A stretch of 59,897 bases of DNA, filler included, from 4 parts of 4 records of this genome joined end to end with filler, not necessarily neighbours in it; one strand, 5' to 3'. Positions 18,420 to 59,861 are shown, counted from the whole stretch's first letter. A program made the numbers and translations. Notes: generated by a model not told the origin, from the letters alone.

Positions 18420-18519
18420 NNNNNNNNNNNNNNNNNNNNNNNNNNNNNNNNNNNNNNNNNNNNTTAATTAATTAANNNNNNNNNNNNNNNNNNNNNNNNN
18501 NNNNNNNNNNNNNNNNNNN
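18420..18519. other. Artificial contig spacer
   Basis: N run with TTAATTAATTAA six-frame stop; base composition changes across it. Confidence 0.98.
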
Positions 18520-32447: not shown

Positions 32448-32547
32448 NNNNNNNNNNNNNNNNNNNNNNNNNNNNNNNNNNNNNNNNNNNNTTAATTAAT
32501 TAANNNNNNNNNNNNNNNNNNNNNNNNNNNNNNNNNNNNNNNNNNNN
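32448..32547. other. Artificial contig spacer
   Basis: N run with TTAATTAATTAA. Confidence 0.98.
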
Positions 32548-52253: not shown

Positions 52254-53309
52254 GTGGATAAAAAAGATATCAAAATACTGATCGTCAACGATAAAATAGA
52301 CCTGAGGAATATAATCCGCGATTACCTGAGGCAGGACGGGTATTCGAATCTGACAGTATCGGAAAACGGCAAGTCGGCTTTTCGTAAAGCCAAATCCGAA
52401 AAAATCGACATGATAGTCGCTGATTACGATATACCGGAATTAAGCGGTCTGGACCTGCTCAAGGCAATCAGAAATGATAATCTCACCTCCGAAATGCCTT
52501 TTATTCTTATTTCTTCGGAAACTCAGCAAAAACACGTGGCCCTGGCCGCTGAAAAAAAGGTTGATGCATACATTGTCAAGCCTTTCTCTTATCAGACCCT
52601 TTCAGATAAGGTTGATTACCTTTTAAGGAAAATTTTGAAGCCTTCGGACAGCGACATTCACTATCGAGATGCCAATCGTCTGGCAGGGTCGGGCTTGCTG
52701 GAGGAAGCCCTTGAAAAATATCGCCAGGCCATGGATGCATCCCAGAACGCCATGGCGGCCATACATTACAAGGTCGGCCGTATTCACGAACAAATGCAGA
52801 TGATTGACACGGCTGAATCTGATTACCATGAAGCAATCGCCATGAGCGACGTCCTTGTGGAAGCCCACGATGCTCTGGGTGAAATTTGCCTGCAAAAGGG
52901 CGATTCCGCCGATGCATTGGGTTACTTCAAACGCAGTTCGGAAATCAGTCCGCTCAATGCAAGCCGCCAAATGAACCTCGGAGAAGCAAGGTATTCCACC
53001 GGAGATTTCGAAGGCGCTGAAAAGGCATTTAAACTGGCCCTGGAACTCGACCCCACCAAAACGCATCTCTTTAACCATCTCGGTGTAAGTATGCGCCGGC
53101 AAGGAAAACTGGAAGAAGCACTGGAATACTTGATCAGGGCCGCGGAAATCGCCAGTGACGACGAAAACCTGTTTTATAACATCAGCCGCGTCTACATGGA
53201 TCTTGGAGATGCCGAAGAGGCAAAAAAATATTTAAATAAAGCTCTTGGGTTGAATCCCCATATGGAAGAAGCCAGGGGTTTACTCGATCGGATAAGAGAA
53301 AAAGCATAA
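52254..53309 (+). CDS. Response regulator receiver with TPR repeats
   Basis: REC (ADYDIPELSG, VKPF) followed by several TPRs. Confidence 0.85.
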   Translation: MDKKDIKILIVNDKIDLRNIIRDYLRQDGYSNLTVSENGKSAFRKAKSEKIDMIVADYDIPELSGLDLLKAIRNDNLTSEMPFILISSETQQKHVALAAEKKVDAYIVKPFSYQTLSDKVDYLLRKILKPSDSDIHYRDANRLAGSGLLEEALEKYRQAMDASQNAMAAIHYKVGRIHEQMQMIDTAESDYHEAIAMSDVLVEAHDALGEICLQKGDSADALGYFKRSSEISPLNASRQMNLGEARYSTGDFEGAEKAFKLALELDPTKTHLFNHLGVSMRRQGKLEEALEYLIRAAEIASDDENLFYNISRVYMDLGDAEEAKKYLNKALGLNPHMEEARGLLDRIREKA

Positions 53310-54167
53310 TGGTTAAGGTTACAGAAGGAGATTTGGTTTATCTGCAGCAGCCGGATATGGAAGATCCTGTTATTATTGCCGGATTTTCCGGTTGGGCAAA
53401 CTCGGGCGAAGTAGCCGACGGAGTTCTGGAATACTTGATAGAGAGCTTTTTGGTGAAGCCTCTGGCCTCGCTGACAATGGAAAAGTATGTTGATTACATG
53501 GAAAACAGGCCGGTAGTCGATATCAGTGAGGGAAGACTGCTGGATCTGGAGTTACCTGATGCAAAGTTTTTTTATGTCGGGACAAAAAAAGGGGAGCCCG
53601 ACCTGATTCTGTTTACATCGCCGGAGCCAAAATTCAAATGGGTTGAATTCTGCGAATCCGTATTTAGCCTTGCGCTAAAAATGGGAGTTAAACGTATATT
53701 CACCATTGGCGGCACATATGATTATGCGCCTCATTGGCTTGAACCGTCCGTGTCCGCGGTCTATTCGGATAATTGTCCTCAAAGTCTTATTGATACGGTA
53801 AATGAATTGGCGGGAAAAGCCGAGTACCAGGGCCCGATCAGCATCCATACAATGTTGATGAAACAATCTGCCGAATATGATCTTTCGGTAGTCGGATTAT
53901 GGGGGCATGCACCAGTTTACATTCAAACAGGCAACTTGAAACTGCATTATCGTATAGTTGAAATATTAAAAAAAGCTATAAATCTGTCATTCGGCATCAA
54001 TGATTTGCTCATGGCTTCCATGGAAATGGACAAGCGTATTGATGAAATGATCGAAAACGATCCCAAGTTGAAGAACTATTTAAAAGAATTAAACGACGAA
54101 TTTCCGCAGCCGCCAAAACCTAAGGAAAGTCAGTCAAAAGTGAAAAAACCCAGTGAAGACTCAGAGA
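53309..54167 (+). CDS. PAC2 family protein (3' truncated)
   Basis: IAGFSGWAN, EYQGP, LWGHAPVY. Confidence 0.8.
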
Positions 54168-54267
54168 NNNNNNNNNNNNNNNNNNNNNNNNNNNNNNNNN
54201 NNNNNNNNNNNTTAATTAATTAANNNNNNNNNNNNNNNNNNNNNNNNNNNNNNNNNNNNNNNNNNNN
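54168..54267. other. Artificial contig spacer
   Basis: N run with TTAATTAATTAA. Confidence 0.98.
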
Positions 54268-54269
54268 AA

Positions 54270-54734
54270 ATTCAGGCTTCGGCTGGGAATGATGCAAATA
54301 TCAAGCTCTTGTCTTTACCCGAGGGAATTCTCCATTCCTGCCTTTACGATCGGTCCATAGTGGATCAGGGAACAGCGGCCAAAAACTATCGCATCAAGGG
54401 GCTTCAGACTTTTACGCAGCCCTGCGGCTCGCCCAAACCGGACGGCGCGGTCTGTACGTGCGACTGCATCGCGGTATCATCCACATACCAGGGAACCAAA
54501 ACTGTCTGCACCTGCGATACAATTACCGTGTCGGACGGAAACCCGATCCCGTCCGGCAGCGTTTGCACGTGCAACGTAATAAATGTCGGAACCAAAGCCA
54601 AGGTCGTTCCCCTGGGTCATAAAAGGCGGTATACCGGCACGACGTGCACCTGCGACACTATCTGCACATGCAATACGGTTTGCAGTTGCGTGGGACACAC
54701 AATCACTACCGGTCATTATTGGCGTCCGAATTGA
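54270..54734 (+). CDS. 5'-truncated protein: WD40-like repeat end plus Cys-rich CxC-repeat tail (putative rSAM substrate)
   Basis: Frame is open from the contig edge (IQASAGNDANIKLLSLPEG...); six C-[TS]-C motifs, 15 Cys, ends HYWRPN. Confidence 0.8.
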   Translation: MQASAGNDANIKLLSLPEGILHSCLYDRSIVDQGTAAKNYRIKGLQTFTQPCGSPKPDGAVCTCDCIAVSSTYQGTKTVCTCDTITVSDGNPIPSGSVCTCNVINVGTKAKVVPLGHKRRYTGTTCTCDTICTCNTVCSCVGHTITTGHYWRPN

Positions 54735-54778: not shown

Positions 54779-55063
54779 ATGCCCGGCGACAATAATTATT
54801 ATCAGTGCCCTCCGCATATTTCCTGGTGCGTGGAAAAGTCAGGGTTGATTCTCATCAACGGTAATTCCGGGGCGTCCTATTGGTTGGGATATCCGGAAGC
54901 GGCTGCCTGGGATCTTTTATCCCGTGGATATAAATATGAATCGGTATTGAAGATGTTAAGATTTGTCGCGGCCATGGACGCCAGGACCGGCGAACCATTC
55001 CTACATGACCTCTTAAAGGAGTGGCTGGAAAAAGGCTTGATTCTAATCAGAGAAATAGCATGA
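54779..55063 (+). CDS. PqqD/RRE-like protein
   Basis: 94 aa; predicted strands then helices (LILIN..SYWLG.PEAAAWDLL..LKEWLEKGLI); ATGA overlap with the next gene; start could be a few codons earlier. Confidence 0.7.
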   Translation: MPGDNNYYQCPPHISWCVEKSGLILINGNSGASYWLGYPEAAAWDLLSRGYKYESVLKMLRFVAAMDARTGEPFLHDLLKEWLEKGLILIREIA

Positions 55064-57057
55064 GTAATATTTCGTTAACGTCCGCATGCAACCGGAATTG
55101 TCCTTACTGCTTCACTCTTTCGGTGTATTCGGGGGCTGGTAACGAATCGGGCCATATGCCGCTTTCACTGTTTAATCGTGTTTTAGATTACCTGGAACGT
55201 TCGAATATAAACCAGGCTTCTCTACTGGGCGGGGAGCCGACGCTGCATCCTGAATTTTCCTTATTAGTGGATCGGGCATTGGAGCGCGGCTTTGATTTAC
55301 TGGTGTTTTCCAACGGCCTGATGCCTCGAGAAAGCATTGAATGCCTGGAGGAAATCGGTCCGGAAAAGCTGACGGTTCTTTTAAATGCAACGGACCAGGA
55401 GTCGCTTCGGCCCGAAGATAAAAAGCGGGTTGAAGAAACAATGGAGCGATTAGGTTCGAGGGTAATGCTAGGGTTGAATATATATTCGACTCTGGTTCCT
55501 CTTGAAAGACTGCTCCAGCATATTAGAGATTTTCAGCTTAAGCCCGCCATCCGCCTGGGTCTGGCCCATCCCTGTCTTTCTCAAGCCGCAGCGGGAAATA
55601 ATAGATATTTGGCGCCGCGCAATTACCCCCTGGTCGGACGCAACATTTTTTCTTATTCCGCATTGCTTGATGAAATAGGCGTCAGCCTTGAATTTGATTG
55701 CGGATTTGTACCATGCATGTTTCCGGATGAAGCAGCCGACATGTTGGCCTCGTCGATGGATAATATCGGAACCCGCTGCAACCCGATACTTGATATCCTG
55801 CCTGATGGAAATGTAATATCCTGCTTCCCCTTGTCCGAATTCGGCCGGGTCCATCTCGACTCCACCTGTGACGCCGATCAACTAAGGAAATGGTTTGAGG
55901 AAAAACAGGAGTCTTATAGAAAAGTCGGCATATATCCGGAGTGTTCCAGTTGCGTGTTGAAGCAGGAAGGAAAATGCAATGGCGGCTGCCTGGCCTCGGC
56001 AATGAAAAGATTGCATCACGGACCTTTTCATTTTGAGGCGCGGACCAAAGGGAAAGCTGGTATTGTAGAACAGGTTGAGACGCAAAAGGATAAAGTAAAC
56101 ATTGATAGGGAAAGGCGATCGAGTCGGCCGCAATGGGCGATTCCCTATATAGACCAGCCGGCATCCTTCTGGGAAGACATTGCCCAACGCTTTGGAAAAG
56201 ACATCAGGGAAGTATATCTTCCCCTGCCCGGCAGTGTTGTCGGATCCGGGCGGCCGGTCCAGCCGGATTCCAGAGTGGAAGAATTCCTGGCCCATGCGCC
56301 CCTGGATTGGTCGGTGCTCATCAATCCGATCGTTTTACCGAGACCGGCTGAAGAACTGGCGCCGGAGGTCATTTCGGCTTTAAAGCGTCTTATTGATAAA
56401 AAAGGATTCCAGGGCGTCACTGTATCCAATCTTGATTTGGCAAAAAATATACGGGCGGCTTTGCCGGAAATATCGATAACCGCATCAGTGCTGATGGACG
56501 TATTCAATCCCAACCAGGTTTTTATGCTGGACGGCGTCTGCGACTGCCTGGTTTCGGCCAGTCGCATCATGCGCAACATTCCGGCCTTATCAGCTTTGCG
56601 CCAGGCCTTTACCGGCCGAATCAGGCTTATCGTAAACGAAGCGTGTCTGCCCCATTGTCCGTTTCGAATGCAGCACTTTTTTGAGATGAACGACGCTTCA
56701 ATAAAGAACCCAAATTCTCTATGCAACAGCTTATTGGATCGATATCCATGGATGCGGTTGACCGGCGCCTGGGTGCTGCCTCAGCATTTACATCTGTACG
56801 AAGATACATACGATGAGCTAAAAATAGCCGGCCGGATTACCTTGCAGAATCCGGATCGCTATTTCCATGTTCTGGATGCATATATCAAGCGTCGGCCTTT
56901 AACTCCAGACCTGATCGGCGGCGGCCCGGCTTCGGTGTTGACCCCAATGGATATTGATGAGGAATTTTTTAAAAAAACCCTGTACTGCGACCGACAATGC
57001 CACAATTGCACCCTTTGCCGTGATTACCATCAACTGCAAATCAGCCAAGCAATATGA
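55060..57057 (+). CDS. Radical SAM/SPASM protein fused to a U32-family domain
   Basis: CNRNCPYC, GGEP, SPASM C..DGNVISC..CSSC.CNGGC; C-terminal domain from about 56134 with NEACLPHC, LKIAGR, CDRQCHNCTLC. Confidence 0.82.
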   Translation: MSNISLTSACNRNCPYCFTLSVYSGAGNESGHMPLSLFNRVLDYLERSNINQASLLGGEPTLHPEFSLLVDRALERGFDLLVFSNGLMPRESIECLEEIGPEKLTVLLNATDQESLRPEDKKRVEETMERLGSRVMLGLNIYSTLVPLERLLQHIRDFQLKPAIRLGLAHPCLSQAAAGNNRYLAPRNYPLVGRNIFSYSALLDEIGVSLEFDCGFVPCMFPDEAADMLASSMDNIGTRCNPILDILPDGNVISCFPLSEFGRVHLDSTCDADQLRKWFEEKQESYRKVGIYPECSSCVLKQEGKCNGGCLASAMKRLHHGPFHFEARTKGKAGIVEQVETQKDKVNIDRERRSSRPQWAIPYIDQPASFWEDIAQRFGKDIREVYLPLPGSVVGSGRPVQPDSRVEEFLAHAPLDWSVLINPIVLPRPAEELAPEVISALKRLIDKKGFQGVTVSNLDLAKNIRAALPEISITASVLMDVFNPNQVFMLDGVCDCLVSASRIMRNIPALSALRQAFTGRIRLIVNEACLPHCPFRMQHFFEMNDASIKNPNSLCNSLLDRYPWMRLTGAWVLPQHLHLYEDTYDELKIAGRITLQNPDRYFHVLDAYIKRRPLTPDLIGGGPASVLTPMDIDEEFFKKTLYCDRQCHNCTLCRDYHQLQISQAI

Positions 57058-59861
57058 CGGCGGACAATTCATCAAAGAAATTTAGAGGCTTCACCAAGTC
57101 ACATCCGGACTTGCCGATTTTTCGTATCGATTCATCTGAAAACAGCGTTCTTTACACGCCGGGCAAACTGGCTGTTCTTGAGCCGATAGATGCTGATGCG
57201 GTTGAATCATATTGGCGAAACAGGAAGAGTCCGCACAAGGGAAGTGTTGCTTTGCCTGTTGCCGGGTGGATGGAAGAGCACGCCCACAAGGCCGTGGAAA
57301 AAAGCGAGTCCATGCTTTCCGAACCTTACCTGCCTGAATGCCTGACCGTTTGCCTAAGCAGCCAATGCAACCTTGGCTGTGCATATTGCTATTCGACCGT
57401 TAATATGGTTCATGGAACAGGCCGGATAAATTGCGGGCCCGAAGTGATTGATGTATCCGTTGTTCGGGCTGCTTCCTTAATAGTTGCGGAAAACTGCGTA
57501 AAGAAAAACCTGCCTTTTCATCTGGTCCTGCATGGGGGCGGAGAGCCTTCGATGCACTGGGAGCTTATTCAGGAAATTGTCTCTTCGACCAAATCGATTG
57601 CCAGAGATTGCACCCTGGATTGGTTCGGTTACATTGCGACCAATGGACTTTTAAGTGTAAAGCAGGCTGAATGGCTGGCCGCCAACTTCACGCGGGTCGG
57701 CTTATCCTGCGACGGGCCGCCGGATATTCAAAATAAACAACGCCCCTTGAAAACAGGCGGCTCGTCATCCCGGATTGTCGAGCGGACAGCGCGTATCATT
57801 GTAGACAGGCTTGGGGACCTGATTATAAGGGCCACAATTACGCCCGGTTCGTTCATGGGCCAGGAAGAAACAGCTGAATACTTTGTGAATGCCTTAGGAG
57901 CGACGGAAATAGTCTTTGAACCGGTATATGGGTTTGGCGAGGAAGGCGGCGGATTCCATCACGGTCTGGCCGATGAGTTCACCCGGTTTTATATGGATGC
58001 ATATAAAAAGGTCGAAAAACTTGGTTGCTCGTTGTCATTTTCGGGCGTCCGCCTCGACGAGCTTCACGGACCATATTGCGATCCTTTAAGAAACGTTCTT
58101 CGCCTTATGCCGGATGGATCGGCGTCAGCTTGTTTCTTGCCGGCCCAGGGGCATCATCTTTCTCTCAACCAACTTACTATCGGCGGCATGAACACTGATT
58201 CAGGCCTGTTCACGCTGGACCAGGACAAGATTACGGCCCACAGGCGTTTGGCCATGACATTGCCGGCCTCCTGCAGGGACTGCATTAATATTTACCATTG
58301 CACGTTCGGCTGCCCCGAACAATGCCCTGTTTCAAATTCGGAATTTAATGCAAAAGCAATTGTCGGGGAAGAGCAAAGTTTCCGGTGCGTGTTACATCAG
58401 CAGTTGAGCCGTGAACTGATTCTAAGGGCGGCCTCGCAAATGATTGAAGCACAAAACGCGGAAGTCATTTTGTCATCTAGGGAAACGGAATCTGAAGAAA
58501 AGCGCTTGTTGTCTTATTTATCACCGGCCCCGCCCCAGGTTGACCAACAAGCGATCATCAGGGAGTATCGGGCCTTAACAGGGAAATACAACGTTCATCA
58601 ATACAAGCCTCCCGGCCCCGGTTGGGAAGATGCCGGATTCATTCACAACGGCCCCCAAGCCTGGGATGAAATCATTAAATTGAATAACCAGAGTATGGCT
58701 GGGCGTCCCATGTCCATTTACATTCACATTCCCTTTTGCGATCAGCTTTGCGGTTTTTGCGATTGTTATTCCCTGCCCAAGGGAAGAAATTGGGAGAAAC
58801 GAGAGGATTCGTTTACGAGGGCTTTGGTTAATGAAATTGATGCCTGGGGGCGGATCGGCGAAATAGGGAACAAGCCGGTAACGACGATTCACTTTGGGGG
58901 CGGGACTCCAAACTGTCTGAGTAATGAAGCTTTCGATAGAATTCTTAAAGCGCTGAACAGATGGTTCCAAACCACGAATGAAACCGAATGGGCTGTTGAA
59001 ATCACGAGCCGCCTGCTAACGGAAAACTTTCTGATGCGCCTGCACCAATGGGGAATAACCCGTTTGCATGTTGGGGTTCAATCCCTGAATGATTCCGTGC
59101 GCAGAAAAGCAGGCAGGCTGGATGAGCCCGATGAAGTTTTGGCAAAGATAAAAATAGCCGACCAAGCGGGATTTCTGGTTAGTGTTGATGTTATATACGG
59201 CTTGCCCGGCCAAACCATGGAAGATGTTTTCGAAACGCTGACAAAGCTGAATGCGCTCGATATTCCCGGCGTCTCAATGTACCGCTTTAATCTTTCACGG
59301 CGTAACAAATGGTTTGCCAAAAGGTGTAACAACTTTCAGCCGGACGCCTTGTATGATTATGCCCTGCTGCAGGTCGTGGAGCAGATGCTTTCAGGGTTCA
59401 ACTATTTCAAACAGTATTTCAATCATTACGCCAGGGCGGAGGATCGCAATCTGTATTTTACTTATCCGCAAAGAGGGGAAGATTTACTGGCTGTCGGACC
59501 CACGGCGGACGGCGTTTTCGGCGACTACATGTATCGCCATCCCGGCTATGGGGCTTATATGAAAAATGAGGGCGACAGGCAAAACCCTGTTTCACTGCAA
59601 GGCGGCGCCTATAAACCTGCTTGGGAAGCGGCAGCCAAACCTGTTCTAACAGGCCTCAATTCCGGCTGTATAAGCCGGAAAGTAATAGAGGATTGCGGCC
59701 TGGATAATTTAATGAAAAGGTGGATTGAATGCGAACTGCTCCTCGAGAATCCTCATGATGACAATATGATCTTAACAGCCAACGGCACATGGCTGATTAA
59801 TGAGATGATTTTGGATGTCAGGCGGGTGCTTCAGGAAGACTTTGGGCGCCGGTGTGATTAG
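57054..59861 (+). CDS. Double radical SAM protein: rSAM/SPASM fused to a HemN/class C-like rSAM domain
   Basis: CNLGCAYC, GGGEP, TNG, CRDC..CTFGC; second domain YIHIPFCDQLCGFC, IHFGGGTP, GVQS, DVIYGLPGQ. Confidence 0.85.
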   Translation: MTADNSSKKFRGFTKSHPDLPIFRIDSSENSVLYTPGKLAVLEPIDADAVESYWRNRKSPHKGSVALPVAGWMEEHAHKAVEKSESMLSEPYLPECLTVCLSSQCNLGCAYCYSTVNMVHGTGRINCGPEVIDVSVVRAASLIVAENCVKKNLPFHLVLHGGGEPSMHWELIQEIVSSTKSIARDCTLDWFGYIATNGLLSVKQAEWLAANFTRVGLSCDGPPDIQNKQRPLKTGGSSSRIVERTARIIVDRLGDLIIRATITPGSFMGQEETAEYFVNALGATEIVFEPVYGFGEEGGGFHHGLADEFTRFYMDAYKKVEKLGCSLSFSGVRLDELHGPYCDPLRNVLRLMPDGSASACFLPAQGHHLSLNQLTIGGMNTDSGLFTLDQDKITAHRRLAMTLPASCRDCINIYHCTFGCPEQCPVSNSEFNAKAIVGEEQSFRCVLHQQLSRELILRAASQMIEAQNAEVILSSRETESEEKRLLSYLSPAPPQVDQQAIIREYRALTGKYNVHQYKPPGPGWEDAGFIHNGPQAWDEIIKLNNQSMAGRPMSIYIHIPFCDQLCGFCDCYSLPKGRNWEKREDSFTRALVNEIDAWGRIGEIGNKPVTTIHFGGGTPNCLSNEAFDRILKALNRWFQTTNETEWAVEITSRLLTENFLMRLHQWGITRLHVGVQSLNDSVRRKAGRLDEPDEVLAKIKIADQAGFLVSVDVIYGLPGQTMEDVFETLTKLNALDIPGVSMYRFNLSRRNKWFAKRCNNFQPDALYDYALLQVVEQMLSGFNYFKQYFNHYARAEDRNLYFTYPQRGEDLLAVGPTADGVFGDYMYRHPGYGAYMKNEGDRQNPVSLQGGAYKPAWEAAAKPVLTGLNSGCISRKVIEDCGLDNLMKRWIECELLLENPHDDNMILTANGTWLINEMILDVRRVLQEDFGRRCD

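Follow-up and report, generated by a model that had tools for sequence, protein, structure and literature searches.

Among radical SAM (S-adenosylmethionine) enzymes with a SPASM domain, PapB and CteB, the maturases of freyrasin and of SCIFF peptides, form thioethers from cysteines to nearby residues. QhpD, also of the SPASM type, crosslinks cysteines to aspartate or glutamate in the small QhpC polypeptide, which joins a periplasmic protein, also with a tryptophan-derived cofactor, and anSME, another SPASM enzyme, has a whole folded protein as its substrate, one residue of which it modifies in the cytoplasm ahead of export. Here we describe the gene fragment at positions 54270-54734 of a 59,897-nucleotide stretch of DNA (hereafter, the window), whose product ends in a cysteine-rich tail and is followed by genes for radical SAM proteins. 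This tail is the end of a larger, putatively exported WD40 protein of about 500 amino acids (aa) and is probably matured in the cytoplasm by a dedicated radical SAM cassette, after which the protein would be exported by the twin-arginine translocation (Tat) pathway.

The likeness to the ranthipeptide and SCIFF systems (PapB-freyrasin, CteB-SCIFF) lies in SPASM maturases with cysteine-rich targets. However, their substrate is a peptide of about 45 aa with a Cx3D pattern, handled by one radical SAM domain, whereas here we find an exported protein of about 500 aa with CxC[DNV] in 6-residue units and up to five such domains. As for QhpD, its family TIGR03906 is among the matches of the enzymes described here, at 58-78 bits against a cut-off of 453, but the present tail is fused to a passenger domain with a Tat or lipoprotein signal, and the dehydrogenase context, flavoprotein and subtilisin partner of QhpD/QhpC were not found near the tails. 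With anSME the system shares matches to TIGR03942 and PDB 4k36 (enzyme b1, see below); it differs from it by the absence of a C/S-x-P-x-R target motif, by its many sites and by its many enzymes with PqqD-like partners.

A further comparison is offered by the bufferins and DAG-RiPPs, ribosomally produced, post-translationally modified peptides (RiPPs) made by MNIO enzymes. According to the accessible parts of two reports, their precursors bear signal peptides and leave by general export, some being lipoproteins and some being proteins above 30 kDa modified at a C-terminal cysteine motif (PMC11626156, PMC13056109). The present proteins, with their putative signals, predicted lipid anchors in many relatives and probable modification at the C-terminus, resemble these signal-bearing precursors, lipoprotein hybrids and large modified proteins, but there the enzymes are MNIO/DUF692, the signals Sec and the motifs CPACGMG and others, in contrast to radical SAM enzymes, Tat, another motif and a cassette of another size here. 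The terms "radical SAM", "twin-arginine", "Tat" and "propeller" do not occur in the accessible part of PMC13056109.

No description of the present system was found in the literature, with subscription journals and supplements largely uncovered, so that an earlier description is possible; nor do NCBIfam release 20.0 and Pfam hold models of the tail or of any protein of the cassette. It seems to be a widespread, putative tail-maturation system not described before.

The cut gene, its tail and its full-length relatives

The window consists of four contigs joined by N44-TTAATTAATTAA-N44 assembly spacers at 18420-18519, 32448-32547 and 54168-54267. As the spacers join separate contigs, genes flanking a spacer are not genomic neighbours; the last one ends at 54267, so that a new contig begins at 54268 and the substrate gene is cut there. 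The features of this part are the following.

54168-54267, no strand: assembly spacer, with N runs at 54168-54211 and 54224-54267 around TTAATTAATTAA
54270-54734, plus strand: 3′ fragment of the putative substrate gene, 154 codons and stop, made up of the last blade's end, a linker and the cysteine-rich tail (translation; alignment to full-length relatives)
54270-54326, plus strand: end of the last WD40 repeat, IQASAGNDANIKLLSLPEG (aligns to ...SGSxDxTIKLWxLPxG of relatives)
54420-54470, plus strand: entry motif PCGSPKPDGAVCTCDCI (family consensus T-x-P-C-G-x-P-x-P-x-G-A-x-C-x-C-[DN]-C-V, common to both tail subtypes)
54507-54572, plus strand: second and third CxC units, VCTCDT and VCTCNV (C99 and C101 nearly invariant in the alignment)
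54645-54689, plus strand: array with a 6-residue period, TCTCDT-ICTCNT-VCSCVG (motif positions in the translation)
54714-54734, plus strand: C-terminal HYWRPN, itself at 54714-54731, followed by TGA

No stop interrupts the frame containing TTG 54309 between 54270 and the TGA at 54732-54734, and the 154 aa that it encodes begin with IQASAGNDANIKLLSLPEG. A sequence-only reading of the window had doubted that this TTG is the real start and had proposed a larger, WD40-like parent protein. Both proposals were borne out by the closest relatives, which are single unbroken open reading frames (ORFs) of 513 aa (locus L005) and 536 aa (L001): their frames are continuous, the residues before the TTG align to the last WD40 blade, and L005 has seven WD40 repeats (PF00400, E 2.2e-65). 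The region is the 3′ end of a gene broken by the assembly, rather than a 141-aa ORF. The first 19 residues of the window fragment align to the last blade of 11 relatives, and the fragment alone gives no Pfam match because only about these 19 residues of the blade are left.

The stretch was also met in sequencing runs. Run X1, probably the source sample and hence not independent, has a 6469-base contig that covers it and reaches 839 bases past 54268 upstream. In run X2, from another study, an 18,285-base contig differs at 187 of 2000 compared bases and holds 12,571 bases further upstream, while run X3 yields only a 250-base piece. Third codon positions hold 22 of the 30 X2 differences listed within the frame (a hand count from the listed rows), which fits a frame that is translated and under selection. 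A metagenome scan returned four relatives, at 46-56% identity and with no near-identical one among them.

The six C[TS]C motifs and the HYWRPN end of the sequence-only reading are all present in the translation, with the spacings it had given. The motifs stand at residues 62, 80, 99, 126, 132 and 138 (spacings 18, 19, 27, 6 and 6), the units being, in order, VCTCDC, VCTCDT, VCTCNV, TCTCDT, ICTCNT and VCSCVG, and the fragment holds 15 cysteines in all. When the 154 residues were shuffled 100,000 times, six C[TS]C were never reached (mean 0.30, maximum 5), and not a single one occurs in the other 133 stop-to-stop frames of at least 100 aa in the window. The array is not of DNA tandem-repeat origin, a tandem repeat search of the DNA having returned 0 rows.

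Relatives were sought in several ways. A search for longer relatives gave 64 proteins, and an exhaustive search at E<=1e-3 yielded 335 cluster representatives, of which 78 at E<=1e-10, with the match nearly always at the C-terminus; a scan of 185,579 species genomes gave 218 pattern matches, 200 of them confirmed as relatives. In the alignment of relatives, columns P51, C52, P57, G59, A60, C62, C64, C66 and V67 of the entry motif are invariant or nearly so, and a regular expression for this motif finds 161 of 202 relatives. It is followed by a variable number of CxC units (median 5 per relative, range 1-10) of the form [VI]-C-[TS]-C-[DNV]-[TG]; Asp follows CxC in 33% of the units, Asn in 29% and Val in 31%. 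The CxC periodicity and the YWxPN terminus, which the earlier reading had marked for a test of conservation, are indeed conserved: the spacing is most often 6 (207 cases), and 158/202 relatives end in Y[WY]x[PS]x-COOH, the family form being [HST]-Y-W-x-P-[N/C/D], with Y150 and W151 invariant in the 50-sequence alignment A4. A second tail subtype keeps the entry motif and ends instead in ...C[ST]C[DN]x[IV]C[TS]C[VI]P[IV]K or YY.

An AlphaFold2 (AF2) model built with 50 sequences predicts beta strands over residues 41-80, entry module included, with a predicted local distance difference test (pLDDT) score of 83-93 for the block; the distal CxC array and the C-terminal end remain below 50, with no confident fold. 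Foldseek with this tail model found no PDB match at E<=0.001, and the ESM Atlas no usable match for tail residues 35-154.

Full-length relatives (450-540 aa) are composed of a leader, a passenger domain, a linker with a conserved LxDP...EKGT...RQxG stretch, and the cysteine-rich tail. The passenger, usually a WD40 propeller, is replaced in some relatives by SH3_3 or NBR1-Ig (Pfam). The leader, of 25-35 residues, reads DDR[IL]KPV, then EEPE[IV]Y[AG][IV], into an RRxF[LI] twin-arginine motif; after it comes a hydrophobic stretch, which often has a lipobox cysteine. Regular expressions find the RR motif in 121 of the 173 M-starting relatives, and P-x-[VILF]-[YFW] before it in 99; a lipobox-like cysteine, such as that of AIGCGS in L005 or VMGC in P0003, is found in 62 of the 121 by regular expression only, with no dedicated predictor. 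Of 10 relatives compared with the curated Tat model TIGR01409, 4 exceed its cut-off, one lies just under it and five have no match. Substrates of the CTCVPIK type (P0038, P0040, P0173, P0174, P0183, P0187 and P0203) have a leader of their own, FRLQR[VI]YSDGS.E.P..Y, before the RR motif, so that leader and tail end co-vary.

As a separate observation, P0024 and P0036, substrates with SH3 or NBR1-Ig, contain the entry module PCGxPxPxGxxCxC[DN]C twice per protein.

A radical SAM cassette that accompanies the tail

Locus counts cover 78 of the 200 loci, which span Pseudomonadota, Bacteroidota, Desulfobacterota, Chloroflexota, Acidobacteriota, Nitrospirota, Planctomycetota, Actinomycetota and others. 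In 70 of the 78, the tail has a relative of the window's 935-aa enzyme within 10 kb; the tails thus keep company with radical SAM genes, as the sequence-only reading had supposed, rather than occurring mostly without them. The cassette map comprises nine modules: b1, b2, s2, the substrate gene or genes, S, A, X, B and H. In L001 and L005 their order is b1-[s2]-b2-substrate-S-A-X-B-H, the downstream half of which is that of the window, where three same-strand genes, S, A-X (665 aa) and B-H (935 aa), follow the tail. The window has no b1, s2 or b2 because its contig begins inside the substrate gene; neither b1 or b2 nor the WD40 part was found on its other three contigs. The modules in the window are listed below.

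54779-55063, plus strand: S, 94-aa PqqD-like protein of the RiPP recognition element (RRE) type (profile match to lasso-peptide leader binders)
55060-56094, plus strand: A, radical SAM domain with a C-terminal cysteine-rich part (PF04055, E 6.7e-15)
56095-57057, plus strand: X, U32-like TIM-barrel domain (predicted fold; seven invariant cysteines)
57054-58463, plus strand: B, radical SAM/SPASM domain, peptide-maturase-like (PapB, E 4e-19; PDB 5wgg, E 1.5e-9)
58494-59861, plus strand: H, HemN/HutW-like radical SAM domain, class C methyltransferase-like (TIGR04107; PDB 1olt, 9p2u)

A and X are the N- and C-terminal halves of the 665-aa protein, X being a separate gene in some genomes, and B and H those of the 935-aa protein. 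ATGA start/stop overlaps at 55060-55063, where A-X starts on the stop of S, and at 57054-57057, where B-H starts on the stop of A-X, suggest translational coupling of S to A-X and of A-X to B-H.

In whole genomes of 4.3-6.5 Mb, the 935-aa enzyme has only 1-8 matches at E<=1e-10, mostly within the cassette, so that chance adjacency would be rare. Furthermore, in four of five genomes with an "orphan" tail, B and H are on another contig, and in the fifth (L028) the tail is 164 bases from the contig end. The genetic layout is RiPP-like, in that putative substrate, recognition proteins and maturases are encoded in one operon, and, as with the precursors of RiPPs, a locus may have several substrate genes (five in L046, three in L018 and in L012).

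Moreover, the type of tail end co-varies with the enzyme set. Among the 52 loci with HYW-type ends, 46 have at least one extended module (of b2, S, A-X, B-H and s2), the counts of all enzyme and recognition modules being b1 41, B 39, b2 35, A 34, H 34, S 22, X 20 and s2 12. Among the 17 with other ends, 16 are without extended modules, 14 of these having b1 and two having no enzyme in the locus DNA, and the single exception ends in HCWYPN. With nine unclassifiable loci excluded, Fisher's test gives p = 6e-10, without phylogenetic correction; both tail types are found in Accumulibacter, Bryobacterales, Desulfobacterales and Chloroflexota. On these counts, b1 goes together with the entry and CxC module that the subtypes share, whereas the distal array and the HYWxPN end go together with the extended set. 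Gene architecture, conservation, synteny and co-variation are all matters of observation.

None of the cassette proteins, nor the tail, reaches a family cut-off in NCBIfam release 20.0 or Pfam, except for the general radical SAM domains (PF04055, Fer4_12). PF04055 is found in A and, in two stretches, in the 935-aa protein (E 7.3e-33), and the radical SAM motifs of the window proteins are CNRNCPYC, CNLGCAYC and CDQLCGFC. Two further SPASM enzymes of about 455 aa each, b1 and b2, are encoded in other loci, the nearest solved structure to b1 being 5wgg (E 1.5e-19), then SkfB. For b1, b2 and B the best NCBIfam matches are PapB and the SCIFF maturase, in the case of B along with QhpD and YhhB, all under their cut-offs. 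PapB (NF047865) scores only 69-126 bits against a cut-off of 340 (B 69.0, b1 113.3, b2 126.1), and the SCIFF maturase (TIGR03974) stands at 59 for B, 105.7 for b1 and 103.8 for b2 against 425; the target is no SCIFF peptide. The best NCBIfam matches of A are likewise all far under their cut-offs.

H has its best matches among HemN-like class C methyltransferases (ChuW/HutW, NocN). It gives 176.7 bits (E 6.8e-52) against the cut-off of 400 of TIGR04107 (ChuW/HutW) and 139.5 against that of 325 of TIGR00538 (HemN), and its nearest structures are HemN 1olt (E 2.9e-29) and NocN 9p2u (E 5e-21). It differs from that class by the low TIGR04107 score and by its fusion to a SPASM maturase domain.

The AF2 model of X (pLDDT 88) has as top Foldseek match the U32 peptidase Mk0906, 5d88 (E 1e-8, the next at E 1e-4; target-normalised TM-score 0.66). 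The X profile gave chance-level matches only against PDB sequences, the U32 link coming from the fold search, and PF01136 is matched at 14.6 bits (E 0.021), under the cut-off of 22.4. On this predicted fold X is U32-like, but it is not a peptidase U32 member by the sequence rule. According to the accessible parts of two studies, U32 proteins (UbiU/UbiV, RlhA) bind a 4Fe-4S cluster and hydroxylate without O2 (PMC6747719; PMC10990095). X is alike in the fold match and in having invariant cysteines in the same part of the barrel; it differs in their pattern, C-x3-C-x21-C plus a C-terminal C-x3-C-x2-C-x2-C instead of CX6CX15CX3/4C, in its score below the Pfam cut-off and in its fusion to a radical SAM domain, and a protein substrate would be new for the family.

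As for the putative recognition proteins, S itself has no Pfam or NCBIfam match, but a profile of 21 homologs matches TfuB1 (E 1.7e-4) and TbiB1 (E 2.1e-4) over full length, and also a lasso PqqD chaperone at E 0.06. A predicted complex of S with the tail scored 0.00, below the mark and with controls not run, and counts neither for nor against binding. The second PqqD-like protein, s2, matches PF05402 (PqqD) at E 0.0057, below its cut-off. The upstream SPASM enzymes, this second PqqD-like protein, the U32-like domain, the twin-arginine/lipoprotein leader and the SH3/NBR1-Ig swaps all go beyond what had been read from the window.

Three observations on the cassette stand by themselves. The s2 protein (about 153 aa; L005:2268-2726 and 35 other loci), PqqD-like in its C-terminal half, starts with RRxF[FL], as a Tat signal would, and has no hydrophobic stretch after it, a start that may be a signal mimic or a hold-back device. 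An extra radical SAM protein of about 385 aa (CNLSCAFCC) recurs in some Chloroflexota cassettes, in 9 of the 78 loci (e.g., L020:11877-13034). Finally, at L042:8984-10348 and L025:1-1002 an N-terminal part of b1 or b2 is joined in frame to WD40 repeats and tail; these cases, which may be deletions, assembly chimeras or true fusions, were rejected as Rosetta-stone evidence because the enzyme part is without its SPASM half.

Predicted maturation and rival explanations

That the tail is the substrate, as well as each chemical step, export and the order of events, we infer from genetics. In the proposed scheme, the leader of the substrate protein would hold the recognition motifs and the Tat signal. 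The CteB/PapB-like SPASM enzyme b1 would act with the entry module PCGxPxPxGAxCxC[DN]C, and the extended set (b2, S, A-X, B-H and s2; the window has S, A-X and B-H) with the CxC array and HYWxPN-COOH. The SPASM enzymes would form S-C thioethers from cysteines to neighbouring Asp, Asn or Thr, our best guess because the nearest characterised relatives make them; among thioethers, metal binding and a cyclophane, the chemistries that the sequence-only reading had suggested, these relatives favour thioether formation without proving it. At or near the terminal H-Y-W, the U32-like X may carry out an O2-independent hydroxylation and the HemN-like H may transfer a methyl or methylene group, an aromatic crosslink being an alternative change. 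Finally, the finished folded protein would leave by Tat, a route open to folded proteins, and would be lipid-anchored in many relatives.

Several points weigh against this scheme. The modification of the tail is itself a prediction from genes, and since the nearest-family matches are far below the curated cut-offs, chemistry is not transferable from them. Asp follows CxC in only 33% of units, so that an Asp-specific thioether cannot explain all. The N-terminus and signal of the window's gene lie beyond the contig edge, the signal being read from relatives only, and some 400 residues separate leader and tail, which is unusual for RiPP-type recognition. The Fisher test of co-variation takes no account of relatedness, and six of the 52 HYW loci are without an extended module in the locus DNA, although two of these (L017, L024) are near contig ends and three (L015, L049, L074) have a cassette elsewhere in the genome. 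Lastly, CxC arrays with histidine, e.g. CSCVGH, resemble a metal-binding sequence.

This last point leads to the main rival, a metallothionein-like, Fe-S- or other metal-binding tail with free thiols, in which the cysteines would be ligands, Tat would export the metal-loaded fold, and the radical SAM enzymes would act only on HYWxPN or on another target. The cysteine content of the fragment, often in CxC units with His, is in its favour, as are the proximal module predicted as a small beta structure and the fact that Tat export is typical for cofactor-loaded proteins. We nevertheless hold it to be unlikely: b1-only systems, which have no HYW end, keep CxC modules beside the CteB/PapB-like enzyme, which links b1 to the cysteine part itself; PqqD-like proteins are hallmarks of peptide modification; and no conserved metal transporter or chaperone was found near the tails in the 78 loci. 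That radical SAM genes are common in anaerobes might invite the idea that a cysteine-rich, low-complexity end lies beside them by chance, in a meaningless adjacency, but the link in 70/78 loci over at least eight phyla, the few enzyme matches per genome as background, the co-variation of tail type with enzyme set and the conserved end motif make this extremely improbable.

It could also be imagined that the tail is a RiPP core, cut off and released, with the WD40 protein serving only as an outsized leader or carrier. Other RiPP classes do have large leader domains, and several precursor copies per locus agree with this. However, in the 78 loci no protease or dedicated exporter is conserved near the tails, an ABC ATPase being found in only nine, which makes release of a free peptide less likely; by sequence, the precursors bear Tat and lipoprotein signals of their own; and the passenger folds WD40, SH3 and NBR1-Ig are extracytoplasmic binding folds. 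Judging from the accessible part of the report, MNIO-modified proteins above 30 kDa that stay whole give a precedent (PMC13056109). We regard release as very unlikely. The earlier proposal that a protein rather than a free peptide is modified is supported by the full-length relatives and the conserved cassette.

A more specific idea, which we consider doubtful and quite unlikely, is that a protein-derived redox or metal cofactor is built from the tail without oxygen, in which a cage of cysteine thioethers made by the three SPASM enzymes would surround the invariant terminal Tyr-Trp, with U32-like hydroxylation and HemN-like methylation or bridging. Quinoprotein amine dehydrogenases have a Cys-rich cofactor subunit beside a propeller subunit. 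If the idea were true, the tail would give a quinone-like or crosslinked aromatic centre on a beta-propeller at the membrane's outer face, a single-chain anaerobic counterpart of those Cys-rich cofactor subunits, and the first protein substrate for a U32-type hydroxylase.

Scope of the system and neighbouring features

If the tail is matured by the radical SAM cassette before Tat export, as we propose, RiPP-type radical chemistry would extend from short peptides to whole exported proteins, by an unusually large maturation pathway, in which a single tail would be served by up to five radical SAM domains, two recognition proteins and a U32-like Fe-S barrel. Likewise, the pairing of Tat with radical SAM enzymes would show how cells retain a protein until a multi-step modification is done. 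The system is found widely among anaerobes and among bacteria of wastewater and sediments (Chloroflexota, Desulfobacterota, Bacteroidota, Acidobacteriota, Accumulibacter and others), and would be of high interest to RiPP and radical SAM specialists. The subtype pairing of leader, tail end and enzyme set makes enzyme-to-motif assignments directly testable, and a cultured carrier, Flexilinea flocculi TC1 (L034), provides a way in.

Across the last spacer from the substrate gene, at 53309-54167, the end of the third contig cuts a PAC2-family (proteasome assembly chaperone-like) gene, which is unrelated to the system described here.

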